From positions 81,401 to 145,400 of the IMG/VR virus record IMGVR_UViG_3300044213_000170: 64,000 nucleotides of DNA. One strand, given 5' to 3'. Below, one piece after another: positions 3,506 to 57,581 of this stretch (its first letter is position 1; each line of letters starts with the position of its first letter). Under the pieces are notes generated by a model. That model saw only the letters and a list, made by a program, of their open reading frames with translations, was not told the DNA's origin and did not search any database. Both the position numbers and the translations under genes were made by a program. Source of the stretch: a virus.

Positions 3506-3534
3506 ATTATATGTTATTTATACTTTGTTGTCAA
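3506..3534 (-). promoter_or_regulatory. sigma70 promoter with embedded T4-type late promoter
   Basis: TTGACA-17-TATAAT; TATAAATA at 3515-3522. Confidence 0.85.
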
Positions 3535-3680: not shown

Positions 3681-3709
3681 ATTGTAGCAATATTTCTATT
3701 TATTGTCAA
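3681..3709 (-). promoter_or_regulatory. sigma70-type promoter
   Basis: TTGACA-17-TACAAT. Confidence 0.75.
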
Positions 3710-3729: not shown

Positions 3730-3821
3730 TGGTACCAGCGGAGGGGATCGAACCCTCTCAAGAACGCTAATCTGGCGCTAAAAGTCTTATAAGGACTCTC
3801 TGACTTCCAAGTCTCGCTGGT
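3730..3821 (-). tRNA. Non-canonical tRNA with UAU anticodon (reads AUA), long V-arm and minimal D-loop
   Basis: Loop CUUAUAA; 7-bp acceptor stem; T arm; CCA; D hairpin GACU-UGGA-AGUC; V-arm AGCGC/GCGUU. Confidence 0.8.
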
Positions 3822-3826
3822 AAAAC

Positions 3827-3903
<77 letters not shown>

Positions 3904-3912
3904 GATTTTTCT

Positions 3913-3941
3913 ATTATATGTTATTCTGCATTTATTGTCAA
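3913..3941 (-). promoter_or_regulatory. sigma70-type promoter at the head of the tRNA array
   Basis: TTGACA-17-TATAAT overlapping the MTase stop. Confidence 0.85.
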
Positions 3942-41416: not shown

Positions 41417-44400
41417 TTATAGTCTACCAATAACAACCTCGATGATGCCTGTTGTGCCGTTAAAGTCCTCTAGGGCTTTACCGATTACAGTACCAATCTT
41501 TGGATTAGCTTCAGCACGGGCCATTCCGTTACCAGCTGCAACCATCATATCACCTTTGCGTACTGTGCCTGTTACAAAACATGGTACACGACCGTGTAAT
41601 GCAACATCAGCTACGTACTCTGCATCCAACTCACTGTTCATTAAGTAAGATGGATTTGTAGTGATAACCCCTGCTACAGTTGTTACCATATCTTCAGCCG
41701 CTAATGTAACTTCATTAGTACCTCCGAAGCAAACTACTGTACCTGGTTGATAACGAGCATCTGCTACATAACGCTCTGCCAAGTCAGCGTAACGAGCGTT
41801 AACTGCTGTAACGTTTAATACGTTTGTACTTGGATTATAGTAGAAGCTACTAGCACCGTAAGCAGTTTGGTTAGAACCAGTCGCGCTTACAAATACTGGA
41901 TAGTAGTTTGCGTTTGTAGTTGTTGCTGTTGCGTTGATAATAGTGCTTGGACCTGCTGGACCTTGTGCACCAGTTGCACCTGTTGGACCTTGTGGACCTT
42001 GTGGACCTGTTGGACCTTGTGCACCTGTTGCACCTGTTGCACCTGTTGCACCTGTTGCACCTGTCGGACCTTGTGGACCTTGTGGACCAGTTGAACCTTG
42101 TGCACCTGTTGCACCTGTTGGACCTTGTGGACCTTGTGGACCAGTTGGACCTTGTGCACCTGTTGCACCTGTTGCACCTGTCGGACCTTGTGGACCTTGT
42201 GGACCAGTTGAACCTTGTGCACCTGTTGCACCTGTTGGACCTTGTGGACCTTGTGGACCAGTTGAACCTTGTGCACCTGTTGCACCTGTTGCACCTGTTG
42301 GACCTTGCGGACCTTGTGGACCAGTTGAACCTTGTGCACCTGTTGCACCTGTTGGACCTTGTGGACCTTGTGGACCAGTTGAACCTTGTGCACCTGTTGG
42401 ACCTGTTGCACCTGTTGCACCTGTTGGACCTTGTGGACCTTGTGGACCAGTTGAACCTTGTGCACCAGTTGCACCTGTTGGACCTTGTGGACCTTGTGGA
42501 CCTTGTGGACCAGTTGCACCAGTTGAACCAGTTGCACCAGTTGCACCAGTTAGACCTTGTGGACCTTGTGGACCTTGTGGACCAGTTGAACCTTGTGCAC
42601 CAGTTGCACCTGTTGGACCTTGTGGACCTTGTGGACCTTGTGGACCTGTTGCACCTTGTGCACCTGTTGGACCTGTGCTACCTGTTGCACCCTGTGGACC
42701 TTGTGGACCTTGTGGACCTTGTGGACCTGTTGCACCTGTTGCACCTGTTGGGCCTTGTAGACCTGTTGCGCCAGTTGCACCCTGTGGACCTTGTGGACCT
42801 TGTGGTCCTTGTGGTCCTGTTGCACCAATTGGACCTTGCGGACCTGTACTACCTGTGTTACCAGTTGGACCCTGTGGACCTTGTGGACCTTGTGGACCAG
42901 TTGAACCTTGTGCACCTGTTGGACCTTGTGGACCTTGTGGACCAGTTGAACCTTGTGCACCTTGTGGACCTTGTGGACCTTGTGGACCTGTGCTACCAGT
43001 TGCACCTGTAGGACCTTGTGGACCTTGTGGACCAGTTGAACCTTGTGCACCTGTTGCACCTGTTGCACCTGTTGGACCTTGTGGACCTTGTGGACCAGTT
43101 GAACCTTGTGCACCTGTTGCACCTGTTGGACCTTGTGGTCCTTGTGGACCTTGTGGACCTGTGCTACCTGTTGCACCTTGTGCACCTGTTGGACCTTGTG
43201 GACCTTGTGGACCAGTTGAACCTTGTGCACCTGTTGGACCTTGTGGACCTGTACTACCTGTTGGACCTTGTGGTCCTTGTGGACCTTGTGGACCTGTGCT
43301 ACCTGTTGCACCTTGTGCACCTGTTGGACCTTGTGGACCTTGTGGACCAGTTGCACCTGTATTACCAGTTATACCCTGTGGGCCTTGTGGACCTTGTGGA
43401 CCTTGTGGACCTTGTGGACCAGTTGAACCTGTATTACCAGTTATACCCTGTGGGCCCTGTGGACCTTGTGGACCTTGTGGACCTTGTGGACCTGTTGCAC
43501 CTTGTGCACCTGTTGGACCTTGTGGACCTGTTGCGCCAGTTGGACCTTGTGGACCTTGTGGACCTTGTGGACCAGTTGAACCTTGTGCACCTGTTGGACC
43601 TTGTGGACCTTGCGGACCAGTTGAACCTGTATTACCAGTTATACCCTGTGGGCCTTGTGGACCTTGTGGACCTTGTGGACCTTGTGGACCAGTTGCACCT
43701 GTATTACCAGTTATACCCTGTGGGCCCTGTGGACCTTGTGGACCTTGTGGACCTTGTGGACCTGTTGCACCTTGTGCACCTGTTGGACCTTGTGGACCTG
43801 TTGCGCCAGTTGGACCTTGTGGACCTTGTGGACCTTGTGGACCTGTTGCACCTTGTGCACCTGTTGGACCTTGTGGACCTGTTGCGCCAGTTGGACCTTG
43901 TGGACCTTGTGGACCTTGTGGACCAGTTGAACCTTGTGCACCTGTTGGACCTTGTGGACCTTGCGGACCAGTTGAACCTTGTGGACCTTGTGGACCTTGT
44001 GGACCAGTTGAACCTTGTGCACCTGTTGGACCTTGTGGTCCTTGTGGACCTTGTGGACCAGTTGAACCTTGTGCACCTGTTGGACCTTGTGGACCTTGTG
44101 GACCTTGTGGACCTGTGCTACCTGTTGCACCTTGTGCACCTGTTGGACCTTGTGGACCTTGTGGACCAGTTGAACCTTGTGCACCAGTTGCACCTGTTGG
44201 ACCTTGTGGACCTTGTGGACCAGTTGAACCTTGTGCACCTGTTGGACCTTGTGGACCTTGTGGACCAGTTGAACCTTGTGCACCTGTTGGACCTTGTGGG
44301 CCAGTTGAACCTTGTGCACCTGTTGGACCTTGTGGACCTTGTGGACCTGTTGCGCCAGTTGGACCTTGTGGACCTTGTGGACCAGTTGCACCTGTATTAC

Positions 44401-46780
44401 CAGTTACACCCTGTGGACCTTGTGGACCTTGTGGACCTTGTGGACCTGTTGCACCTTGTGCACCAATTGGGCCTTGTGGACCTTGTGGACCAGTTGCACC
44501 TTGTGCACCAATTGGGCCTTGTGGACCAGTTGCACCTTGTGCACCTGTTGGACCTTGTGGACCAGTTGCACCTGTTGGGCCCTGTGGACCTTGCGGACCT
44601 GTCGAGCCTTGTGCACCAGTTGCACCAGTTGCACCTTGTGCACCTGTTGGGCCTTGTGGACCTTGTGGACCTGTATTACCCTGTGGGCCAGTTGGACCTT
44701 GTGGACCAACAACACCTTGTGGACCTTGTGGACCTTGTGGACCTGTATTACCCTGTGGGCCAGTTGGACCTTGTGGACCAACAACACCTTGTGGGCCCTG
44801 TGGACCTTGTGGACCTGTGTTACCAATCGGGCCTTGTGCGCCTTGTGCGCCTGTGTTACCCTGTGGGCCCTGTGGGCCTTGTGGACCTGTGTTACCAATT
44901 GGACCTTGCGGACCAGTAGCACCTGTTGGACCTTGCGGACCAGTAGCACCTGTCACACCCTGTGGACCTTGTGGACCTTGTGGACCTTGTGGACCAATTG
45001 CTTGGATTTGACTATATGTTGCACCGTCATTGGTAAATTCCCAATGCTTTGCAGATTCATTCCAACGTAATTGTACCGCAGCATCGTCGCCGCGCATTAC
45101 TCGGATGCCTGCGTTCATTGTTGGGGTACCTGTAGTGAAATCGCTGTTCAAATCAACAATATTATCTGCGACACTTAATGTAGTAGAATGAACTGTAGTT
45201 GTTGTACCGTTAACAGTTACGTTACCACTGATAACCAAATCGTCATTAACAACAACACGACCTGAACCAGGTGCAGTTAATGTTAAGTCAATATTTGCAC
45301 TACTTGTAAGCTGATTGGTATGAATTCCTGTACTAAATGTAATAGGATTGCCATCGGTTGATGTGAAATTTTGACCACCTTCTAACTGCAATGTACCTGC
45401 AATTTGAACCGTTGTGCCGGTTGATCCTAACTGTAATACGCCTGTTCCCGATGTAGAAATACGTATATTTTGGTCAAGATCGGCAGTAAAGTTCATTGTC
45501 GAATCTGTACTATGAAGAACTTCAACTCCATTAACATATAAAGAACCGGGACCCACATATACATCTTTCCACTGATGTGATAAGCTACCTAAGCTGTAAG
45601 TAACGTTTGCACTTGGTATAATGTTACCATCAAAGTTTGACATATATACTTTCGTTGCACCGTTTGCCCCAGCATTAACAGTATTAATTGCGGCTGCTAA
45701 ACTGCTTTCAGCAGCTTCAGCACGACTTGTTTCTGCAACAATATTAGTTGCATTTGTTGCAATCGAGCTTGCTAAACTACTTTCTGCACGTTCAGCACGT
45801 GTAACTTCTGTGGAAACTGCAGCACCTAAACTACTTTCAGCAGCTTGTGCACGACTTGTTTCTACTGCTACATCAGCGGTAATAGCTGTACTTAAATTGC
45901 TTTCAGCGGCTTGTGCACGGCTTGTTTCTACTGCTACTGCGGCAGTAATAGCACCTGCTAAACTACTTTCAGCAGCTTGTGCACGACTTGTTTCTACTGC
46001 TACATCAGCGGTAATAGCTGTACTTAAATTGCTTTCAGCGGCTTGTGCACGGCTTGTTTCTACTGCTACTGCGGCAGTAATAGCACCTGCTAAACTGCTT
46101 TCAGCGGCGTGTGCACGACTTGTTTCTACTGCTACATCAGCCGTGATAGCTGTACCTAAACTACTTTCAGCGGCTTGTGCACGACTTGCCTCTACTGCCA
46201 CTGCGGCAGTAATAGCACCTGCTAAACTGCTTTCAGCTGCTTCGGCGCGACTTGTTTCCGCTAAAACATCAGCACTGAATGCAAGACTGTTATTATTAAC
46301 AGTTAATGTGCCAGATGCATCGCGTAATGTAAGTGTACCAATACCAACGCTGGAAGCCGCATTAATGGCAGGTGCAAAAACCGAAGTAACTGCAAAGAAA
46401 ATTGCAGTACCTGTAGTTGCTTGTGTTAATTCGATCTTTGCTGTATTGTTGTCAACTATTACAATGTTTGCAACCAATAAGTTATGATGTGAATCATAAA
46501 CAAAATATGCAAAGTTTGTAGTGTCGAAATTATGTGTAACGGTCCATTCTGTACTTGCTGTACCCTGGGTATGGACATAAGCAGTTTGCTTACTTCCAAT
46601 TGGAACCCAAGTAAAAGTACCTGATCCGCTCACCAATTCGGCCCACAAGTATAGTTGCCCTTCTTTCAGCACCATTGTATATGGTGCGGGATCCGCAGGA
46701 AAGCCTGAAGCGTTAACTTCGAATACGATGTTACCGTTCATTGCTAAGTCTGACAGAACTCTAACTTGTTCGTTAGCCAT
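41417..46780 (-). CDS. Collagen-like fibre protein with coiled-coil repeats and a C-terminal autocleaving chaperone-like domain
   Basis: 339 Gly-X-Y triplets; C-terminal YADLAERY...VALHGRVP...IGKALE. Confidence 0.9.
41945..44995 (-). repeat. Collagen Gly-X-Y repeat (9-bp units, e.g. GGTCCACAA)
   Basis: 3051 nt of [15 protein letters not shown] triplets. Confidence 0.97.
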
Positions 46781-47321: not shown

Positions 47322-50300
47322 TTATAAACCTGCCATACTTACGACGGACACCTTAATATTGCGAGCTTCTGTTAAGAACAATGTTAAGCGGTTAGAAGAA
47401 GTTTCTTCTACGCTTACAATATCGTTTCTCCAAGAACCATCGTCACGCTGTACTAAGATTGTGAACGTCACAAACGTTGCCCCCAAGTTATGGTTGATAA
47501 CGTGTGTTGTAGCAGCAGTTACTGACTGATATGTATAAATTAACGCATCGTAGTCAGAACGGATCTTAGCTTCTGCGGCTGTTGCACGATAAACTTCCGA
47601 ACTCAATGCAGTGCTGCTTGCTAACAAGTTGATTTCGCCTTGTAAGCTAGATTCAGCTGCTTGAGCACGTGAAACTTCACTTGCTAAGTCCGAAGAAACT
47701 ACCCTGATTGCAGAACTTAAACTGCTTTCAGCACCCTGTGCACGTGTTACCTCAACACCTAAGTTGTTTACTACAGAAGTAATGTTGTTCTGTAATGTAT
47801 ACTCAGCTGCTTGAGCACGTGTAACTTCGTTATTAACGTTAGTTTGTACTGTTGCGATACTATTAGCTAAACTTGTTTCAGCTGTAGTTGCACGGTTAAC
47901 TTCAGTTGTTAAATCGCTTGCTACGCCAGCAATATACCCTGCTAAACTGCTTTCGGCACTTTCAGCACGTGTTACTTCAGTGTCTAACTTAGACTGTACT
48001 GTTGCAACACTATTTGCTAAACTGCTTTCTGCTGTTTGAGCACGTGTAACTTCTGCGTTAATTGCGGAAGTATTATTGCTGATTAAACCAGCTAAACTTG
48101 TCTCGGCAGCTTTTGCGCGAGCAACTTCATTGCTGATATTTGTAGCATTTGTACTAATATCATATGTATTTGTTAATACATTTGCAGCAATGCTGTTTTC
48201 AGCGGATGTTGCACGACTTTGTTCAGCAGCAATCGAACTAGATAACGAACTTTCAGCGGCTTGTGCGCGGGCAATTTCGTCTGCCAATAATCTACTCGAA
48301 CCAGTATACAACTCATTGATTGCACTAACGATATTACTGTGAGCAGTTGTATCTAATAATGCTAAATCACCAATCTGAGACTGTAATGTACCTTCAGCTG
48401 TTGTGGCACGTGTTACTTCGTGATCAATGTTATTTTGTAATGTTGCTTCTGCGGCTTCTGCGCGAGTAGCTTCATTATTTACATTGGTCTGAACAGTAGA
48501 AATATCAGCAGCTAAACTTGTTTCTTCGGCTTTAGCACGAACAACCTCAGTTGCTAAATCAGCAGCTACACCGGACATCGAACTTGCTAAACTACTTTCA
48601 GCAGCTTTAGCACGAACAACTTCAGTATTTAAGTTAGTTTGAACTGTTGCAATAGCACCAGCTAAACTACTTTCTGCACGTTCAGCACGTGTTACTTCAG
48701 TATCTAAGTTAGATTGAACTGTTGCAACGCTATTTGCTAAACTGCTTTCTGCTGTTTCGGCACGTGTAACTTCGTTATTAATTGCAGTTGTATTACTTGC
48801 AATTAAACCAGCTAAACTTGTCTCAGCAGCATTTGCGCGGCTTACTTCAGCAGCTACTGTACCAGCGATACTTGCTTCTGCAGTTTGAGCACGTGTTACT
48901 TCTGCACTAATTGCGGCAGCATTTGAGCTATCACCAGCAATACGAGCAGTTGTTTCTGTGCTTAACTCACCAGCTAAACTTGTTTCCTCGGCTTTAGCAC
49001 GAACAACTTCAGTTGCTAAATCAGCAGATACACGGGAAATCGAACTTGCTAAACTGCTTTCAGCAGCTTCTGCACGAACAACTTCAGCACTTACTGTACC
49101 AGCAATACTTGTTTCAGCAGATTCTGCGCGAGCAGTTTCATTACTGATAGCTGTTACATTTAATGCAATAGCAGCAGCCATCGATGCATCGTCAATAGCA
49201 TTTTGTGCTTTCATTGCATAGTAATCTGTGCTTAATGCACTTAAATCACCAGCAATACTTGCTTCTGCGCCAGTTGCACGTGTTACTTCTGCGCTTACGC
49301 TAGATGCAATACTTGCTTCTGCATTCTGAGCACGTGAAACTTCTGCGCTAATTGCAGCAGCATTTGAGCTTTCAGCAGCTTCTGCACGAACAACTTCAGC
49401 ACTTACTGTACCGGCAATACTTGCTTCTGCAGCTTTGGCGCGGCTTACTTCGGCATCAATATTGTTTTGCAATGTTGTTTCCGCAGCTTCTGCACGAGCA
49501 GTTTCATTACTGATAGCTGTGTTAGTTGCAGCAACATTAGCAGAAATTGCTTGTTCAGCAGTTTGAGCACGTGTTACTTCAGCACTTAACTCACCAGCAA
49601 TACTTGTTTCGGCAGCTTTAGCGCGAACAACTTCAGCAGTTACTGTACCAGCAATACTTGCCTCTGCAGCAGTTGCACGATTTACTTCTGCACCAATTGC
49701 AGCAGTATTTGAGCTTTCTGCGGCTTTAGCGCGAACAACTTCAGCAGCTAATGCTGATGCATTTGAGCTGTCACCAGCAATACGAGCGTTAGTTTCTACA
49801 ACTAAATCACCAGCAATGCTTGTTTCAGCAGCTTTAGCACGAACAACTTCAGCACTTAACTCACTGGCAATACTTGTTTCGGCTGCTTTAGCACGAACAA
49901 TTTCAGCGCCTAAGTCACCAGCAATACTTACTTCAGCGGCTGTTGCACGGCTTACTTCAGCAGTTACTGTACCAGCAATACTTACTTCAGCGGCTGTTGC
50001 ACGGCTTACTTCAGCAGTTACTGTACCAGCAATGCTTGCTTCTGCGTGTTGAGCACGTGTTACTTCAGCAGCTAAGGCTGTTGCATTTGAGCTGTCACCA
50101 GCGATACGAGCGTTAGTTTCTACAACTAAATCACCAGCAATGCTTGTTTCAGCAGCTTTAGCACGAACAACTTCAGCACTTAACTCACCGGCAATACTTG
50201 CCTCGGCACCAGTTGCACGTGTTACTTCTGCGCTTACGCTAGATGCAATACTTGCTTCTGCATTTTGAGCACGAGTTGCTTCCGCAGCAGTTGCAGCAGC

Positions 50301-53300
50301 ATTTGAGCGTTCTGCGGCCATAGCACGTGTAACTTCTGCAGCCAATGCTGTTGCATTTGAGCTATCACCAGCAATACGAGCGTTAGTTTCTACAACTAAA
50401 TCACCAGCAATACTTGCTTCTGCGCCAGTTGCACGTGTCACTTCAGCACTTAGGTTTGCATCAATGCTTGTTTCGGCTGCTTTAGCACGAACAACTTCTG
50501 CACTTAAGTCACCAGCAATGCTTGTTTCAGCGGCTGTTGCACGGCTTACTTCAGCAGTTACTGTACCAGCAATGCTTGCTTCTGCGTGTTGAGCACGTGT
50601 AACTTCTGCACTTACGTTAGATGCAATGCTTGCTTCTGCAGCTGTTGCACGTGTAACTTCTGCAGCCAATGCTGTTGCATTTGAGCTATCACCAGCAATA
50701 CGAGCGTTAGTTTCTACAACTAAATCACCAGCAATACTTGCTTCTGCGCCAGTTGCACGAACAACTTCGGCACTTAAGTTACTTGCGATGGAATGTTCTG
50801 CAGATTGAGCTCTAAATACTTCAGTACTTAGATCGCTTGCAATGATTGCTTCTGCACTGGTAGCACGTGTAACTTCTGCGCTAATTGCAGCAGCATTTGA
50901 GCTTTCTGCAGCAGTTGCACGACTTACTTCAGCAGTTACTGTACCAGCAATGCTTGTCTCAGCAGCTTTAGCGCGGCTTACTTCTGATGTTAAATCGCTT
51001 GCAATGCTTACTTCTGCAGCAGTTGCACGACTTACTTCAGCAGTTACTGTACCAGCAATGCTTGTTTCAGCAGCCTTAGCACGAACAACTTCAGCACTTA
51101 AGTCACCAGCAATACTTGTTTCGGCGGCTTTGGCACGAACAACTTCAGCACTTAAGTTACTTGCAATACTTGTTTCTGCAGTATGAGCACGTGTTGCTTC
51201 TGCACTGATTGCAGCAGCATTTGAGCTTTCTGCGGCCATAGCACGTGTAACTTCTGCAGCCAATGCTGTTGCATTTGAGCTGTCACCTGCGATACGAGCG
51301 TTGGTTTCGATTACTAAATCGCTTGCAATGCTTGCTTCTGCACCAGTTGCACGACTTACTTCAGCAGTTACTGTACCAGCAATACTTGTTTCGGCGGCTT
51401 TGGCACGAACAACTTCAGCACCTAAGTCACCAGCAATGCTTACTTCTGCAGCAGTTGCACGACTTACTTCAGCAGTTACTGTACCAGCAATGCTTGTCTC
51501 AGCAGCTTTAGCGCGGCTTACTTCTGATGTTAAATCGCTTGCAATACTTGTTTCTGCGGTATGAGCACGTGTTGCTTCTGCGCTAATTGCAGCAGCATTT
51601 GAGCTGTCACCTGCGATACGAGCGTTGGTTTCGATTACTAAATCGCTTGCAATACTTGCTTCTGCAGCTTTGGCGCGGCTTACTTCAGCAGTTACTGTAC
51701 CGGCAATGCTTACTTCTGCAGCAGTTGCACGACTTACTTCAGCAGTTACTGTACCAGCAATGCTTGTCTCAGCAGCTTTAGCGCGGCTTACTTCTGATGT
51801 TAAATCGCTTGCAATGCTTGATTCAGCAATTTGAGCACGATTAGCTTCTGCGATAATTGCAGTATTTAAGCTGCTTTCCGCTGTCTGAGCACGTGTTACT
51901 TCAGCAGCTAATGCTGTTGCATTTGAGCTGTCACCTGCGATACGAGCGTTGGTTTCTACAACTAAATCGCCTACAATGCTTGCTTCTGCAGCTTTGGCGC
52001 GAGCAATCTCGACTGCTAATCCTGTATCGTGTTCTAATGTGTAGATACGAGCATCTAAGCTGCTTTCTACATTTTCAGCACGAGCAACTTCAGTATTTAA
52101 GTTAGTTTGAACGGTTGCGATAGCACCAGCTAAACTACTTTCGGCGCCTGTAGCACGTGTAACTTCTGCACTTAAACCAGCGGCAATACTGCTTTCTGCA
52201 GCTTTGGCACGTGTAACTTCTGCGGCAATACTGTTAGCTAAACTTGTAGATAAGTTACTAATTGCACCAGCAAAACTACTGTCGGCAGCATTGAAGTAAG
52301 ATACAATTTCAGTCAAGCTGTCTATTGCAGCAGGGTCTGTGTTGCTTACGATAAAGTCAATACGCTTGCTTAAACTTAATTCAGCAGCAGTTGCACGACT
52401 TACTTCAGCAGTTACTGTACCAGCAATGCTTGTTTCTGCGGCTTTAGCACGTGTTACTTCTGCACTTAAGTCACCAGCAATACTTGCTTCTGCAGCAGTT
52501 GCACGACTTACTTCAGCAGTTACTGTACCAGCAATGCTTGTTTCTGCGGATTTAGCACGTGTTACTTCTGTTGTTAAATCGCTTGCGATACTTGTTTCTG
52601 CGGTATGAGCACGTGTTGCTTCTGCACTGATTGCAGCAGCATTTGAGCTTTCTGCAGCCATTGCGCGAGTAACTTCTGCGGCCAATGCTGTTGCATTTGA
52701 GCTGTCGCCAGCGATGCGGGCATTTGTTTCTACAACTAAATCACTAGCAATGCTTGTCTCAGCAGCTTTAGCGCGGCTTACTTCTGATGTTAAATCGCCT
52801 ACAATGCTTGCTTCTGCAGCAGTTGCACGACTTACTTCAGCAGTTACTGTACCAGCAATGCTTGTTTCTGCGGCTTTAGCACGTGTTACTTCGGCACTTA
52901 AATCACTTGCGATACTTGTTTCTGCATTTTGAGCACGTGTTGCTTCTGCACTGATTGCAGCATTTAAACTACTTTCAGCAGTCCGGGCACGTGTAACTTC
53001 TGCAGCCAATGCTGTTGCATTTGAGCTGTCACCAGCAATGCGGGCATTTGTTTCTACAACTAAATCACCTGCGATGCTTGCTTCTGCACCAGTTGCGCGA
53101 ATAACTTCTGCACTAATTGCAGCAGCATTTGAGCTTTCTGCAGCTTTAGCACGTGTTACTTCAGCACTTAAATCACCAGCAATACTTGCTTCTGCGCCAG
53201 TTGCACGTGTTACTTCTGCGCTTACGCTAGATGCAATACTTGCTTCTGCATTCTGAGCACGTGTAACTTCTGCGCTAATTGCAGCAGCATTTGAGCTTTC

Positions 53301-56300
53301 TGCGGCTTTAGCACGTGTAACTTCTGCAGCCAATGCTGTTGCATTTGAGCTGTCACCAGCAATACGAGCGTTAGTTTCTACAACTAAATCGCCTACAATG
53401 CTTGCTTCTGCAGCAGTTGCACGACTTACTTCAGCAGTTACTGTACCAGCAATGCTTGTTTCTGCGGCTTTAGCACGTGTTACTTCGGCACTTAAATCAC
53501 TTGCGATACTTGTTTCTGCATTTTGAGCACGTGTTGCTTCTGCACTGATTGCAGCAGCATTTGAGCTATCACCAGCGATGCGGGCTGTTATCTCTGTGCT
53601 TAAATTGCTAGCAATACTTGCTTCTGCATTTTGAGCACGTGTTGCTTCTGCGGCCAATGCGGCAGCATTTGAGCTATCACCGGCGATACGAGCGTTGGTT
53701 TCTACAACTAAATCGCCTACAATGCTTGCTTCTGCAGCAGTTGCACGACTTACTTCAGCAGTTACTGTACCAGCAATACTTGCCTCAGCACCAGTTGCAC
53801 GTGTTACTTCAGCTCTTAGGTTTGCAGCAATGCTTGCTTCTGCAGCTGTTGCACGTGTAACTTCAGCACTAATTGCAGCGGTATTCGAACCTTCTGCGGC
53901 TTTAGCACGTGTTACTTCAGCACTTAAGTCACCAGCAATACTTGCTTCAGCAGCAGTTGCACGGTTTACTTCAGCAGCTACTGTACCAGCGATACTTGCT
54001 TCTGCGCCAGTTGCACGTGTTACTTCTGCGCTTACGCTAGATGCAATACTTGCTTCTGCATTCTGAGCACGTGTAACTTCTGCGCTAATTGCAGCAGCAT
54101 TTGAGCTTTCTGCGGCTTTAGCGCGAACAACTTCAGCAGCTAATGCTGATGCATTTGAGCTATCGCCTGCGATACGAGCGGCAGCTTCAGCATCAATATT
54201 ACTTTGTAATGTTGTTTCTGCGGCTTTAGCACGTGTTACTTCAGCACTTAAATCACCAGCAATACTTGTTTCGGCAGCTTTAGCGCGAACAACTTCAGCA
54301 GTTACTGTACCAGCAATACTTGCCTCTGCACCAGTTGCACGATTTACTTCAGCAGTTACTGTACCAGCAATGCTTGCTTCTGCGCCAGTTGCACGAACAA
54401 CTTCAGCAGTTACTGCACCAGAAATGCTTACTTCAGCGGCTGTTGCGCGGCTTACTTCTGCACTGATTGCAGCGGCATTTGAGCTTTCTGCAGCTTTAGC
54501 ACGTGTTACTTCAGCACTTAAATCACCAGCAATGCTTGCTTCTGCGCCAGTTGCACGAACAACTTCAGCACTTAAGTTGCTTGCAATACTTGCTTCTGCA
54601 GCTTTAGCACGTGTAACTTCTGCAGCTAATGCTGATGCATTTGAGCTGTCGCCAGCAATACGAGCTGCTGTTTCTGTACTTAAATCACTTGCAATACTTG
54701 CTTCTGCAGCTTTGGCACGTGTAACTTCTGCAGCTAATGCTGATGCATTTGAGCTGTCGCCAGCAATACGAGCTGCTGTTTCTGTACTTAAATCACTTGC
54801 AATACTTGCTTCTGCGCCAGTTGCACGTGTCACTTCAGCACTTAGGTTTGCATCAATGCTTGTTTCGGCTGCTTTAGCACGAGCAACTTCAGCAGTTACT
54901 GTACCAGCAATACTTGCCTCAGCACCAGTTGCACGAACAACTTCAGCACTTAAATCACTTGCAATACTTGTTTCGGCTTGTTCAGCGCGACGTGTTTCGT
55001 TGGCAATATTTGTAGCATTTAGTGCAACGTTTGCAGATATTAAACCTTCTGCTGTTGTAGCACGATTTACTTCGTTACTAATATCTGTTGCATTTGTAGC
55101 AATTAATGCAGCTAAACTTGTTTCTTCTGTCGAAGCACGATTTACTTCTGTTGTTAAGTTACTTGCTACAGTATTGATACTTACACCTAAACTGCCTTCG
55201 GCTGCGTATGCACGGCTTACTTCTGCGGCTAATGCAGCAGCGTTTGAGCTATCACCAGCAATACGAGCTGCTGTTTCTGTGCTTAAGTCTCTAGCAATGC
55301 TTGTTTCAGCTGCTTTAGCGCGGCTTACTTCAGAGCTTAAATCACTTGCAACACTAGACTCAGCTGCTTTGGCGCGAGCAACTTCAGCGGCTAAATCACC
55401 AGCCAAACTGCTTTCTGCTGTCTCGGCACGTGCAACTTCGTTATTAATTGCAGTTGTATTACTTGTAATTAAACCAGCTAAACTTGTTTCGGCAGTATGT
55501 GCACGTGCAACTTCTGTTGCCAAGTCAGCGGCTACGCCGGCTAAACTTGTAGAAATTACGCCTTCGGCTGCTTTAGCACGATTTACTTCTGATGTTAAAT
55601 CAGCAGCAATATTACTTTCAGCGGCTTCTGCACGACTTTGTTCTGCATTAATTGCATGTGTGACGTCGGTATTGATGTTATCAATACGTGTACTTAAACT
55701 ACCTTCTGCGCTAGTTGCACGAGCTACTTCGCTTGCTAAATCTGCTGCAACACTAGATAAACTAGAGCTAATTGCAGATTCTTCAGCCGATGCACGAGCA
55801 GTTTCGTTAGAAATTGCGGTTGCATTTGAAGCAATAGCAGCAGCCATCGATGCATCATCAATGGTATTTTGTGCTTTCATTGCATAGTAATCTGTACTTA
55901 ATGCACTTAAATCACCAGCAATACTTGCTTCTGCGCCAGTTGCGCGGCTTACTTCTTTGTTTACATTGTTTTGTACTGTTGCGATAGAACCAGCTAAACT
56001 ACGTTCGGCAGTTTCTGCACGTGTAGTTTCTGTATCTAAGTTAGACTGAACAGTATAGATATTTGTTTGCAATGTTGTTTCTGCGTGTTCTGCGCGAGCA
56101 GTTTCATTGCTAATATCTGTTGCATTTGTATTAATTTGTGCTTGTAAGCTAGAATCTTCAGTAATACGAGCATTTGTCTCTGTTACCAAATCAGCAGCTA
56201 CAGTAGCAATAGCGGCAGCATTTGTACTGTCACCTGCGATACGAGCACTAGTTTCTGTGTTTAAATTGCTAGCAACGGTAGCAATATAACCATCTAAGCT

Positions 56301-57581
56301 GCTTTCTGCTGTTTGAGCGCGAGTAACTTCTGTTGCCAAGTCAGCGGCTACGCCGGCTAAACTTGTAGAAATTACGCCTTCGGCTGCTTTAGCACGAGCG
56401 ACTTCAGCATCAACACTAGTTTGTACTGTTGCAATAGCACCAGACAAACTTGTCTCTGCCAATTTAGCACGATGTACTTCTGTTGTTAAATCGTTAGCAA
56501 CACCAATAGTAGCACTAGCCAAGCTGCTTTCAGCTGTCTGTGCACGTGATGTTTCTGCTGTTAAGTTATTAGAAACTGTTGCGATATAACCATCTAAACT
56601 ACTTTCTGCAGCTTCTGCGCGAGCAGTTTCGTTGCTTAAGTCGGTATTTAAATTGTCAATATGTGTTTGTAATGTTGTCTCAGCAGCTTGAGCACGACTT
56701 ACTTCATTTGCAATGTTAGTTGCATTTGTATTAATTTGTGTTTGTAGGCTGGCTTCAACACTAGTTGCACGATTAACTTCAGAAGCTAAATCGCTTGCAA
56801 CACTGCTAATACTTGTACCCAATGCTGATTCAGCATTTTGAGCACGTGTTTTTTCAGTAGCAATGCTAGCTGCTAAACTTGTCTGAGCAGATGCTAAATC
56901 ACTAGCAATACTCGATTCAGCTGCTTGTGCACGGCTTACTTCTGTATTCAATGCAGTTTGGTCTGCTTTTAATGCAATAGCTGCGGCATTTGAGCTGTCA
57001 CCAGCGATACGAGCAGTAGTTTCTGTGCTGATTGCACTTTGTAAACTTGTTACTGCGGTATTTAATGCACTTGCTAAACTGCTATCACCAGCAATGCGGT
57101 TTGCAGTTTCTGTAGCTAAATCACCAGCTAAACTGCTGTCGCCAGCAACACGAGCTGTTGTTTCAGTACTGATTGCACTAGTTAAACTACTAACAGCCGA
57201 CGTCAAGTTTGCTTGTACAGAAGTAATCATTCCTGTAATTGTAGTTGCAAAATGCGGGTCGTCGTTTAATGCTCTAGCTAGTTCATTTAATGTGTTCAAT
57301 AAATTTGGTGCGCTATCTACTAATTTGGCAATCTGAGCATCAGTATAGTGTTCTGCATCTAACAACGCTTGTGCAACGTCTGCGGATACAATGAAATCTA
57401 CAATGATAACCTGACTTAAACCATTTAAAGTTGAATAACGCAATTTCTTGTCCGTGGTATTAAACCAAATGCGGCCTGGTTGAACTGAACTTGGATCGCT
57501 GGCTAAACTTTCAACGATCAAATTCTCTGCCCAACCGTTATCCGCTAGTGTAATACCATGAATAATCGGGAATTGTGCCAT
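47322..57581 (-). CDS. Giant coiled-coil fibre protein (3419 aa)
   Basis: Repeats such as AEVTRAKAAEASIAGDLS and ETNARIAGDSSNA; phage-fibre motif LVDSAPNLLNTLNELARALNDDPHF. Confidence 0.88.
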   Translation of the reverse strand: MAQFPIIHGITLADNGWAENLIVESLASDPSSVQPGRIWFNTTDKKLRYSTLNGLSQVIIVDFIVSADVAQALLDAEHYTDAQIAKLVDSAPNLLNTLNELARALNDDPHFATTITGMITSVQANLTSAVSSLTSAISTETTARVAGDSSLAGDLATETANRIAGDSSLASALNTAVTSLQSAISTETTARIAGDSSNAAAIALKADQTALNTEVSRAQAAESSIASDLASAQTSLAASIATEKTRAQNAESALGTSISSVASDLASEVNRATSVEASLQTQINTNATNIANEVSRAQAAETTLQTHIDNLNTDLSNETARAEAAESSLDGYIATVSNNLTAETSRAQTAESSLASATIGVANDLTTEVHRAKLAETSLSGAIATVQTSVDAEVARAKAAEGVISTSLAGVAADLATEVTRAQTAESSLDGYIATVASNLNTETSARIAGDSTNAAAIATVAADLVTETNARITEDSSLQAQINTNATDISNETARAEHAETTLQTNIYTVQSNLDTETTRAETAERSLAGSIATVQNNVNKEVSRATGAEASIAGDLSALSTDYYAMKAQNTIDDASMAAAIASNATAISNETARASAEESAISSSLSSVAADLASEVARATSAEGSLSTRIDNINTDVTHAINAEQSRAEAAESNIAADLTSEVNRAKAAEGVISTSLAGVAADLATEVARAHTAETSLAGLITSNTTAINNEVARAETAESSLAGDLAAEVARAKAAESSVASDLSSEVSRAKAAETSIARDLSTETAARIAGDSSNAAALAAEVSRAYAAEGSLGVSINTVASNLTTEVNRASTEETSLAALIATNATDISNEVNRATTAEGLISANVALNATNIANETRRAEQAETSIASDLSAEVVRATGAEASIAGTVTAEVARAKAAETSIDANLSAEVTRATGAEASIASDLSTETAARIAGDSSNASALAAEVTRAKAAEASIASDLSTETAARIAGDSSNASALAAEVTRAKAAEASIASNLSAEVVRATGAEASIAGDLSAEVTRAKAAESSNAAAISAEVSRATAAEVSISGAVTAEVVRATGAEASIAGTVTAEVNRATGAEASIAGTVTAEVVRAKAAETSIAGDLSAEVTRAKAAETTLQSNIDAEAAARIAGDSSNASALAAEVVRAKAAESSNAAAISAEVTRAQNAEASIASSVSAEVTRATGAEASIAGTVAAEVNRATAAEASIAGDLSAEVTRAKAAEGSNTAAISAEVTRATAAEASIAANLRAEVTRATGAEASIAGTVTAEVSRATAAEASIVGDLVVETNARIAGDSSNAAALAAEATRAQNAEASIASNLSTEITARIAGDSSNAAAISAEATRAQNAETSIASDLSAEVTRAKAAETSIAGTVTAEVSRATAAEASIVGDLVVETNARIAGDSSNATALAAEVTRAKAAESSNAAAISAEVTRAQNAEASIASSVSAEVTRATGAEASIAGDLSAEVTRAKAAESSNAAAISAEVIRATGAEASIAGDLVVETNARIAGDSSNATALAAEVTRARTAESSLNAAISAEATRAQNAETSIASDLSAEVTRAKAAETSIAGTVTAEVSRATAAEASIVGDLTSEVSRAKAAETSIASDLVVETNARIAGDSSNATALAAEVTRAMAAESSNAAAISAEATRAHTAETSIASDLTTEVTRAKSAETSIAGTVTAEVSRATAAEASIAGDLSAEVTRAKAAETSIAGTVTAEVSRATAAELSLSKRIDFIVSNTDPAAIDSLTEIVSYFNAADSSFAGAISNLSTSLANSIAAEVTRAKAAESSIAAGLSAEVTRATGAESSLAGAIATVQTNLNTEVARAENVESSLDARIYTLEHDTGLAVEIARAKAAEASIVGDLVVETNARIAGDSSNATALAAEVTRAQTAESSLNTAIIAEANRAQIAESSIASDLTSEVSRAKAAETSIAGTVTAEVSRATAAEVSIAGTVTAEVSRAKAAEASIASDLVIETNARIAGDSSNAAAISAEATRAHTAETSIASDLTSEVSRAKAAETSIAGTVTAEVSRATAAEVSIAGDLGAEVVRAKAAETSIAGTVTAEVSRATGAEASIASDLVIETNARIAGDSSNATALAAEVTRAMAAESSNAAAISAEATRAHTAETSIASNLSAEVVRAKAAETSIAGDLSAEVVRAKAAETSIAGTVTAEVSRATAAEVSIASDLTSEVSRAKAAETSIAGTVTAEVSRATAAESSNAAAISAEVTRATSAEAIIASDLSTEVFRAQSAEHSIASNLSAEVVRATGAEASIAGDLVVETNARIAGDSSNATALAAEVTRATAAEASIASNVSAEVTRAQHAEASIAGTVTAEVSRATAAETSIAGDLSAEVVRAKAAETSIDANLSAEVTRATGAEASIAGDLVVETNARIAGDSSNATALAAEVTRAMAAERSNAAATAAEATRAQNAEASIASSVSAEVTRATGAEASIAGELSAEVVRAKAAETSIAGDLVVETNARIAGDSSNATALAAEVTRAQHAEASIAGTVTAEVSRATAAEVSIAGTVTAEVSRATAAEVSIAGDLGAEIVRAKAAETSIASELSAEVVRAKAAETSIAGDLVVETNARIAGDSSNASALAAEVVRAKAAESSNTAAIGAEVNRATAAEASIAGTVTAEVVRAKAAETSIAGELSAEVTRAQTAEQAISANVAATNTAISNETARAEAAETTLQNNIDAEVSRAKAAEASIAGTVSAEVVRAEAAESSNAAAISAEVSRAQNAEASIASSVSAEVTRATGAEASIAGDLSALSTDYYAMKAQNAIDDASMAAAIALNVTAISNETARAESAETSIAGTVSAEVVRAEAAESSLASSISRVSADLATEVVRAKAEETSLAGELSTETTARIAGDSSNAAAISAEVTRAQTAEASIAGTVAAEVSRANAAETSLAGLIASNTTAINNEVTRAETAESSLANSVATVQSNLDTEVTRAERAESSLAGAIATVQTNLNTEVVRAKAAESSLASSMSGVAADLATEVVRAKAEETSLAADISTVQTNVNNEATRAEAAEATLQNNIDHEVTRATTAEGTLQSQIGDLALLDTTAHSNIVSAINELYTGSSRLLADEIARAQAAESSLSSSIAAEQSRATSAENSIAANVLTNTYDISTNATNISNEVARAKAAETSLAGLISNNTSAINAEVTRAQTAESSLANSVATVQSKLDTEVTRAESAESSLAGYIAGVASDLTTEVNRATTAETSLANSIATVQTNVNNEVTRAQAAEYTLQNNITSVVNNLGVEVTRAQGAESSLSSAIRVVSSDLASEVSRAQAAESSLQGEINLLASSTALSSEVYRATAAEAKIRSDYDALIYTYQSVTAATTHVINHNLGATFVTFTILVQRDDGSWRNDIVSVEETSSNRLTLFLTEARNIKVSVVSMAGL
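47570..57160 (-). repeat. Degenerate 54-bp (18-aa) and 75-bp (25-aa) coding repeats
   Basis: E-x-x-R-A-x-x-A-E motif recurring at 18- or 25-residue spacing. Confidence 0.9.

Follow-up and report, generated by a model that had tools for sequence, protein, structure and literature searches.

A strongly conserved phage tRNA(UAU) with a second hairpin of anticodon-arm size, a probable lysidine-independent reader of AUA

We analysed a window of 64,000 nucleotides (nt) of viral DNA, positions 81,401 to 145,400 of the IMG/VR record IMGVR_UViG_3300044213_000170, with respect to a non-canonical tRNA gene with a UAU anticodon, hereafter tRNA(UAU), that lies on the minus strand at 3730–3821. The gene encodes a real and very strongly conserved phage tRNA, which combines a compact core with an extra arm of anticodon-arm dimensions. 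We consider it probable that tRNA(UAU) is a working, AUA-decoding isoleucine tRNA (tRNA-Ile) that does not need lysidine and that is co-transcribed with a neighbouring tRNA-Ile2(CAU). In bacteria, AUA is normally read only after the essential enzyme TilS has rewritten a CAU anticodon. If our reading is correct, a widespread and conserved tRNA of phages and mobile elements that reads AUA directly constitutes another, portable solution and helps to explain how AT-rich phages are translated in hosts in which AUA is rare.

Architecture and conservation of tRNA(UAU)

ARAGORN calls a 92-nt tRNA with a UAU anticodon at 3730–3821 on the minus strand, the strand to which all parts given below belong, and the covariance model R1, which was built from phage homologues (see below), scores it at 116.6 bits. 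The 5′ strand of the acceptor stem, ACCAGCG (3815–3821, tRNA positions 1–7), pairs with the 3′ strand CGCUGGU (3734–3740), which is followed by the discriminator A73 (3733) and an encoded CCA (3730–3732), so that the 3′ part spans 3730–3740. Six of the seven acceptor pairs change on both sides among the homologues, and the first one is A1-U72 in the window and G1.U72 in most relatives. A single connector base, A8, leads into the compact D arm GACU-UGGA-AGUC of 4 base pairs (bp) and a 4-nt loop with G18 and G19 (3802–3814, connector included), and again a single A separates this hairpin from the anticodon stem. The anticodon arm (3780–3800) consists of the 7-bp stem GAGAGUC/GACUUUU and the loop CUUAUAA, with the anticodon UAU at 3789–3791. 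Directly 3′ of it follows the extra arm AGCGC-CAGAUUA-GCGUU (3763–3779), 5 bp with a 7-nt loop (3768–3774) that contains GAU, and then the 5-nt linker CUUGA (3758–3762) and the T arm GAGGG-UUCGAUC-CCCUC (3741–3757), whose loop is the canonical UUCGAUY and in which four of the five pairs show compensatory changes. The minimum-free-energy fold gives the same layout, with a z-score of −3.5 against shuffled sequences. The one-nucleotide connector, D hairpin, 7-bp anticodon stem, T arm and CCA reported in a preliminary description of this DNA are thus all present.

Several traits of canonical tRNAs are retained, namely the 7-bp acceptor stem, the 5-bp T stem, the UUCRAnY T loop, the contact between G18 G19 and the T loop, and a discriminator followed by CCA. 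Likewise, the anticodon loop has the standard 7-nt form expected around UAU (Y-U-U-A-U-A-N, with U33, UAU and A37). Where a canonical tRNA has U8 and position 9 as connector, a D loop of 7–11 nt, a 5-bp anticodon stem and a variable region of either 4–5 nt or class II type, in tRNA(UAU) the connector is A8 alone, the D loop has 4 nt, the anticodon stem 7 bp, and the variable region is made up of the 17-nt extra arm and the 5-nt linker. The Rfam tRNA model (RF00005) gives no match at 3730–3821 at its gathering score of 29 bits, nor at E ≤ 10 on a 271-nt slice. The sole Rfam match that does fall in this stretch, to a plastid untranslated region at 13 bits, lies on the T arm and was dismissed as spurious.

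Homologues were gathered from IMG/VR in three scans with exact patterns taken from tRNA(UAU) itself, and these place the same gene in at least about 150 contigs. With a pattern that leaves out the second hairpin, 147 tRNAs were listed, 146 of which have an identical loop and linker. We aligned 74 distinct phage homologues (alignment A1, the basis of R1), and in this alignment 99.6% of the cells at paired positions are paired and 17 of the 29 pairs change on both sides; none of 500 shuffles reaches the observed pairing, and slid registers are only 42–51% paired. Three distinct variants replace the tertiary pair G19:C56 by A19:U56, a switch that is hard to explain otherwise than by D and T loops that meet as in a normal L-shaped tRNA. 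When diverged copies from bacteria and a cyanophage are added, in an extended alignment that was fitted to the model, 23 of 28 pairs show compensatory changes, including three of the four D-stem pairs (GCAU/AUGC, GCAC/GUGC and GAAC/GUUC are found) and six of the seven anticodon-stem pairs. Homologue covariation, one of the checks proposed in the preliminary description, thus supports all five helices.

U33, UAU, A37 and A73 are invariant across the 74 phage variants, and no bacterial or cyanophage copy found departs from UAU. Among the 2,966 tRNAs of the phage loci, all 149 with a UAU anticodon are of the extra-arm type. Identity between pairs averages 92% in this class (90% when columns dictated by the search pattern are set aside), compared with 56–76% for the 28 other isoacceptor classes of the same loci; these figures are biased by ascertainment, because the loci were found with patterns from tRNA(UAU). 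Conservation, one of the points on which the preliminary description had made its proposals hinge, therefore holds. The linker CUUGA is invariant in the phage set and differs in the bacterial copies.

Searches with R1 extended the range of the gene to a cultured freshwater cyanophage, S-SRM01, in which the copy (MW015081.1, 32944–33034; 90.8 bits) is unannotated, and to diverged copies in Rhodobacteraceae chromosomes and one further alphaproteobacterial genome. Bacterial genomes were also scanned with a 16-base pattern; of the 120 matches listed, about 114 were due to chance, and only five loci (six places) among those listed held tRNA(UAU). Five Acidobacteria genomes searched with R1 for the allo-tRNA(UAU) of Mukai et al. 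(see below) yielded only matches of about 38 bits, a score comparable to that of ordinary matches resembling tRNA-Leu(UAA). As to the hosts of the phages, labels of metagenome-assembled genome (MAG) bins (Haliscomenobacter, Aquiluna, Gammaproteobacteria) attached to phage-like array contigs were considered and rejected as host evidence, and the cyanophage marker psbA (PF00124) was not found in the record or in four complete relatives.

The compact-core form of the gene is widespread in freshwater phages, yet it is missed both by the Rfam tRNA model and by at least one published tRNAscan-SE annotation: the paper on S-SRM01 lists 11 tRNAs found by tRNAscan-SE, and tRNA(UAU) is not among them (PMC8557907). 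Inventories of phage tRNAs, and the analyses of codon compensation built on them, are therefore expected to be systematically short of an AUA reader.

A compact core coupled to a longer anticodon stem

A further scan revealed at least 120 additional IMG/VR loci with UAU tRNAs that have the same second loop on other bodies, which allowed us to compare connector and stem length in 133 distinct sequences. A one-nucleotide connector with a tiny D arm goes together with a 7-bp anticodon stem in 107 of 108 cases, and a two-nucleotide connector with a normal D arm goes together with a 5-bp UAU stem in 21 of 25. We infer that the two additional stem pairs compensate for layers of the core that a short D loop cannot provide, and so keep the distance from anticodon to elbow, as would be expected if it is the UAU arm that decodes on the ribosome.

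Compact cores of this kind have parallels in tRNAPyl and in mammalian mitochondrial tRNASer(UCN), which likewise have a one-nucleotide connector, a small D loop and an elongated anticodon stem, and both of which work in translation (PMC7609411). The mitochondrial tRNA and tRNA(UAU) moreover both retain G18 G19 and the T-loop motif. However, in the parallels the anticodon stem has 6 bp and the variable loop 3 nt, as opposed to the 7 bp and the 17-nt arm with 5-nt linker seen here, and their anticodons, synthetases and lineages are unrelated to those of tRNA(UAU), such that the likeness is architectural only.

An extra arm with the format of an anticodon arm

The preliminary description had regarded the extra arm as a class II variable arm. 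It does lie at the class II position, but its format is a different one. After folding of the variable regions, a stem of 5 bp with a 7-nt loop, the exact size of an anticodon arm, is found in 67 of 69 UAU tRNA variants and in none of 283 distinct class II (Ser, Leu and Tyr) tRNAs of the same arrays, whose arms have 2–7 bp and, nearly always, loops of 3–6 nt. Hence, tRNA(UAU) shows neither the short arm loop nor the Ser, Leu or Tyr anticodon of class II tRNAs, and the extra arm is no variable arm of the Ser/Leu type. With few exceptions, its loop reads CAGAUUA, whereas the stem covaries (AGCGC/GCGUU, AGCCC/GGGUU, UGCUC/GAGUG, GGCAG/CUGUG).

Two hairpins with 7-nt loops raise the question of which one is the anticodon arm. 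When the extra arm is deleted in silico, ARAGORN still calls a tRNA-Ile(UAU) in 61 of 74 sequences, whereas deletion of the UAU hairpin leaves a tRNA call in only 1 of 74. The reverse assignment, with the extra arm as the true anticodon arm and the UAU hairpin as an insert, was rejected, as its loop has A33 and U37 and ARAGORN accepts that single construct out of 74. From these deletions, the UAU hairpin (Y32, U33, A37) emerges as the proper anticodon arm and the second hairpin as an accessory.

The format of the accessory hairpin nonetheless invites a refinement of our reading, in which the tRNA has two anticodon-like arms: the UAU arm would decode on the ribosome, and the GAU hairpin, as a mimic of the anticodon arm of tRNA-Ile(GAU), would be read by isoleucyl-tRNA synthetase (IleRS). 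The GAU arm would supply G34, A35, U36 and A38, such that any host IleRS could charge a tRNA whose UAU arm is poorly accepted; either arm may stack on the D stem, depending on whether the synthetase or the ribosome is engaged, and A33 and U37 would disable the GAU hairpin for decoding. We regard this refinement as possible but on the whole unlikely. Besides the size of the arm, it draws on the observation that CAGAUUA differs only at positions 33 and 37 from CUGAUAA, the commonest loop of tRNA-Ile(GAU) in the same arrays, and that the only three variants of the loop seen (CCGAUUA, CAGAUCA and CAGAUAA) all keep GAU. Yet GAU was spotted post hoc, with a chance of a few percent that a random central triplet is an Ile anticodon, and three substitutions are a weak test, since GAU is avoided by chance with p ~0.2. 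Across phage, cyanophage and bacterial copies that differ in the linker and in the other stems, the arm stem covaries around a fixed loop, and within the arrays of the phage loci CAGAUUA outside an anticodon loop is confined to UAU tRNAs; the samples were, however, selected on the loop sequence.

Geometry likewise cuts both ways. The 5-nt linker equals a canonical variable loop in length, so that the extra hairpin stands at the canonical place of an anticodon arm if the UAU hairpin is taken as an insert; on the other hand, IleRS would have to reach the extra arm while gripping the acceptor end. A33 and U37, moreover, exclude both a U-turn and the modified base t6A37 (N6-threonylcarbamoyladenosine), and t6A37 is a determinant for IleRS in E. 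coli. In favour of a dedicated handle, one near-identical tRNA occurs in phages of evidently different hosts, S-SRM01 on the one side and jumbo phages without psbA on the other, which calls for a universal recognition element. If the two-arm arrangement is true, it separates tRNA identity and decoding naturally on one tRNA, which would be useful for the engineering of orthogonal tRNAs, and provides phages and mobile elements with an AUA decoder that is independent of both host and TilS.

AUA as an isoleucine codon of the phage

If tRNA(UAU) is to read AUA as isoleucine, the codon should be used, and used as such. Of every 1000 codons in the record, 19 are AUA. The codon makes up 29% of all Ile codons, and 24–45% of those in the genes of the terminase, the sheath and other structural proteins. 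On the phage side, the comparison of AUA usage suggested in the preliminary description thus finds the codon abundant. We probed its meaning in 45 orthologue clusters from the fetched loci, with 280 alignment columns that contain ATA. These columns also hold ATT (60%) and ATC (41%), Val (~30%) and Leu in only 11–14%, while Ser is not among the partners. This profile equals that of ATT and ATC and is unlike that of TTA and CTA, which co-occur with other Leu codons in 35–56% of the columns (13% for the rare CTC). In these phages, AUA thus stands for Ile.

This result bears directly on another proposal of the preliminary description, according to which tRNA(UAU) is a mistranslating tRNA that is charged by seryl- or leucyl-tRNA synthetase (SerRS or LeuRS) via its long arm and inserts Ser or Leu at AUA. 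With AUA meaning Ile, a conserved tRNA that places Ser or Leu there would harm the phage's own proteins, and AUA is common precisely in essential structural genes, where miscoding hurts most. It is true that an arm is present at the variable-arm position and that tRNA(UAU) has A73, a discriminator of the Leu/Tyr type in bacteria; but the format of the arm recurs in no Ser, Leu or Tyr tRNA of the same arrays, and the compact D arm lacks the D-loop elements that bacterial LeuRS uses. The anticodon, too, is invariant, whereas tRNAs of anticodon-blind synthetases drift (allo-tRNAs have 35 different anticodons). Thus, despite the precedents of the nev-tRNAs (PMC3333845, PMC4300185) and of Ser-inserting allo-tRNAs (PMC5389517), we consider mistranslation highly improbable.

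Neither an IleRS-type synthetase (PF00133) nor TilS (PF01171) was found in the record or in the four complete relatives (338–480 kb), so that the host must provide for charging as well as for lysidine formation. Three of these relatives (G002–G004) carry both tRNA(UAU) and a lysidine-type CAU tRNA. Of the functions suggested in the preliminary description, that of a TilS-independent AUA reader is accordingly the best supported, by the invariant UAU and A37, by abundant and Ile-like AUA codons and by four relatives that lack IleRS and TilS; what has to be amended is that tRNA(UAU) supplements the lysidine-type tRNA(CAU) and does not replace it. In S-SRM01, the anticodon begins with U in 10 of the 11 annotated tRNAs, which thus read codons ending in A. 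Judged from its sequence, the AUA reader missing from this set would be the tRNA(UAU) gene, which fits our reading, and the phage and its Synechococcus host make the question directly testable.

One gene departs from the general pattern of codon use. An open reading frame (ORF) of 3,419 amino acids at 47322–57581 (minus), rich in Ala, Ser, Thr and Glu, has AUA at only 3 of its 206 Ile codons and also shuns AGA, GGA and CTA in favour of CGT and GGT. In other large genes, AUA makes up 24–45% of the Ile codons in five of six checked and 15% in the sixth, a Gly-rich ORF at 41417–46780. The extreme bias of the long ORF suggests that AUA is still read slowly in this system.

Transcription with tRNA-Ile2(CAU) and a proposed mode of action

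The source record (145.4 kb, estimated completeness 42%, G+C content 39%) belongs to a T4-like myovirus, as indicated by a T4-type large terminase, a tail sheath and a gp15-like protein, and holds 34 tRNA genes on one strand that cover all 20 amino acids. Five nucleotides upstream of tRNA(UAU) lies a tRNA with a CAU anticodon (3827–3903, minus; Rfam tRNA, 74.3 bits). Over 96% of its length, it shares 83% identity with E. coli genes annotated as tRNA-Ile, that is, of lysidine type, which bears out the Ile2-like assignment made beforehand, and near-identical copies are present in complete relatives. A consensus σ70-type promoter, TTGACA-17-TATAAT, with 12 of 12 consensus positions, is located 9 nt upstream of the CAU tRNA (3913–3941, minus), and the next promoter comes after tRNA(UAU). 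The two tRNAs therefore look like one transcription unit, with 3913–3941 as its likely promoter. In other phages, tRNA(UAU) genes also sit in tRNA arrays, on the same strand and mostly 2–9 nt from their neighbours. A fixed pairing with tRNA-Ile2(CAU) was considered and discarded, as the neighbours in relatives are tRNAs for Ser(GCU), His, Gly, Leu, Cys and others. With neighbours that vary from phage to phage, tRNA(UAU) is an ordinary member of its array, not tied to the CAU tRNA.

We thus propose that a host-type promoter would drive tRNA(UAU) together with the phage tRNA-Ile2(CAU), that tRNA(UAU) would be excised from the array like the neighbouring tRNAs, and that host IleRS would load it with isoleucine. 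Indirect evidence for this charging comes from the Ile-like behaviour of AUA and from A73. The charged tRNA would then serve the ribosome as an elongator at the many AUA codons of the phage, independently of host TilS. It would add to the CAU form, a possible benefit to an AT-rich phage whenever TilS or tRNA-Ile2 of the host is in short supply. The extra arm with its conserved CAGAUUA may act as an accessory recognition element, for which IleRS would be the leading candidate partner because the loop displays GAU.

Several points weigh against this proposal. U34 is a poor determinant for IleRS in model bacteria, and UAU, if unmodified, could misread AUG as well. A lysidine-type AUA reader is already present in the phage and its complete relatives, such that the need for a second one is an argument and not a finding. 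The two architecture classes behind the coupling of stem and D arm are probably clades, and the coupling may reflect few independent events; exact-pattern sampling, in turn, inflates the apparent conservation and does not allow one to infer how often the arm occurs without UAU. In Mycoplasma mobile, which uses a tRNA-Ile(UAU), IleRS is adapted (PMC3575796). Six allo-tRNAs(UAU) converted to CUA gave no amber suppression in E. coli, and two were toxic (PMC5389517), which counts here if they are relatives of tRNA(UAU). Finally, two bacterial copies lie directly upstream of antitoxin-type ORFs.

Bacterial homologues and a possible role in conflict

This last point leads to the alternative that tRNA(UAU) is a tRNA-like RNA that belongs to mobile elements and takes no part in translation, but acts as a decoy, antidote or sensor in the conflict between phage and host and, for example, absorbs or resists a toxin or nuclease acting on tRNA-Ile. 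The diverged homologues in Rhodobacteraceae chromosomes are found in island-like settings. In one Roseovarius genome, two of the three copies have ORFs with an Xre/MbcA/ParS antitoxin toxin-binding domain 6 nt and 35 nt downstream (Roseovarius sp. MAG chromosome OY829373.1, loci L218:1966–2249 and L294:4028–4557). This link, however, stems from a single genome, and the other bacterial copies stand beside RNase T-like exonucleases, HupE/UreJ or unknowns. Nor was a tRNA-targeting toxin identified at any examined locus, and near the Roseovarius copies no toxin gene was recognised. The nuclease decoy of the preliminary description thus receives no direct support, the two copies upstream of antitoxin ORFs being the sole hint at a conflict system.

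Further arguments for such a role are that allo-tRNAs(UAU) occur near toxin–antitoxin systems, are inactive as suppressors and are sometimes toxic (PMC5389517), that the phage already has a canonical AUA reader, and that the extreme sequence conservation exceeds what decoding alone usually demands. Against it stand the traits of a translating tRNA that have been kept, namely the 7/5 branch (7-bp acceptor and 5-bp T stem), A73-CCA, the T loop, the G18 G19 elbow pair, Y32-U33-NNN-A37 and the compensated arm length, as well as the embedding of the gene among ordinary tRNAs that form a full decoding set. Altogether, we deem a purely non-translational role improbable and retain the reading as an AUA-decoding tRNA-Ile.

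With regard to the bacterial loci themselves, the first Roseovarius antitoxin ORF comprises only the C-terminal domain (62 amino acids), with an integrase fragment near the first copy and a RecD-like helicase fragment nearby. In another Rhodobacteraceae genome (L299:1653–2783 of G013), a tRNA(UAU) copy is followed by two paralogous ORFs, the second of which matches the RNase T/DEDD exonuclease family.

Relation to known tRNAs

In the literature, we found no description of the tRNA(UAU) architecture, only analogues: allo-tRNAs, the tRNA-Ile(UAU) of M. mobile and Bacillus subtilis, the compact-core tRNAs mentioned above and the nev-tRNAs. The allo-tRNAs (Mukai et al. 2017, Nucleic Acids Res 45:2776, PMC5389517; review PMC7609411), which the preliminary description had invoked as a precedent, are non-canonical tRNAs of bacteria and phages that resemble tRNA(UAU) in their long extra arm, their D tetraloop and the greater length of their anticodon stem. 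Their most frequent anticodon is UAU, and odd 'five-stem-junction' forms as well as ties to mobile elements and toxin–antitoxin loci have been reported (PMC5389517).

The resemblance does not amount to membership, and tRNA(UAU) is not an allo-tRNA. Allo-tRNAs are defined by an 8/4 or 9/3 branch and have G73 or U73, a long D stem and varied anticodons, whereas tRNA(UAU) has a 7/5 branch with a covarying 5-bp T stem, a 4-bp D stem and a fixed 7-nt arm loop. We tried the 8/4 and 9/3 folds and rejected them: A8 faces C (in variants, U faces U), so that no eighth pair forms, and all five T-stem pairs are 100% paired, four of them with covariation. In place of the long arm with G73 or U73, which confers Ser identity, and of diverse anticodons, we find A73 invariant and UAU in every copy. 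Where allo-tRNAs have a tRNASec-like D stem-loop (long stem, tetraloop) and a longer anticodon stem, tRNA(UAU) has the tetraloop and an elongated anticodon stem, together with a D stem of only 4 bp. Part of the published 'five-stem-junction' group of allo-tRNA(UAU), here compared by description only, may belong to the extra-arm UAU family.

In terms of the proposed job, analogues are the tRNA-Ile(UAU) of Mycoplasma mobile and of a suppressor of a tilS deletion in Bacillus subtilis, which read AUA through UAU without lysidine (PMC3575796, PMC3919564). Those are ordinary class I tRNAs that replace tRNA-Ile2(CAU) and TilS, in M. mobile with reliance on the adapted IleRS. By contrast, tRNA(UAU) has a compact core and an extra arm, moves between phages of different hosts and coexists with tRNA-Ile2(CAU), which is adjacent in the window and present in relatives G002–G004. 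The nematode nev-tRNA-Ile(UAU) (Hamashima et al. 2012, PMC3333845; PMC4300185) likewise combines UAU with an arm at the variable position. However, nev-tRNAs come from eukaryotes, their bodies are class II of the Leu type, and in vitro they are charged with leucine, whereas tRNA(UAU) has an anticodon-arm-like arm on a non-Leu body, and AUA behaves as Ile.

Additional observations in the tRNA arrays

Within 450 bp of the minus strand, three consensus or near-consensus TTGACA-17-TATAAT promoters are found, at 3506–3534, 3681–3709 and, as described above, 3913–3941, each before a tRNA or the leader region; no intrinsic terminator was detected.

Elsewhere in the window array, two tRNA-like stretches on the minus strand (470–545 and 1075–1140) have no ARAGORN call; one ends in a T arm and GCCA and has CUA in its interior, and the other resembles a degenerate second copy of the adjoining tRNA-Tyr(GUA). 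Between tRNA-Val and tRNA-Pro (1886–2330, minus) lies a region with a small Cys/His-rich ORF in which an HNH-like motif (...CPTHHSYVHS...) can be discerned by eye, and which, to judge from this motif, may encode a homing-type endonuclease within the array.

Upstream of the window in the same record (G000:C1:77463–77549, minus), an 87-nt tRNA with the Lys anticodon UUU combines a D arm like that of class II tRNAs with a variable region of 15 nt, which folds into a 3-bp arm with the loop UUUAU. We considered whether this arm is a second case of an anticodon copy and rejected the idea, as long forms are sporadic (3 of 96 Lys(UUU) tRNAs in related arrays) and none are alike. The complete relatives (L162, that is G003:C1:243500–253000, and L168–L173 of G001) contain a tRNA with a CUA anticodon, of amber-reading type and labelled 'Pyl' by ARAGORN, and at the same loci over-long tRNAs for Pro(UGG), Lys(UUU) and Gln(UUG), which measure 99, 84 and 85 nt, respectively.

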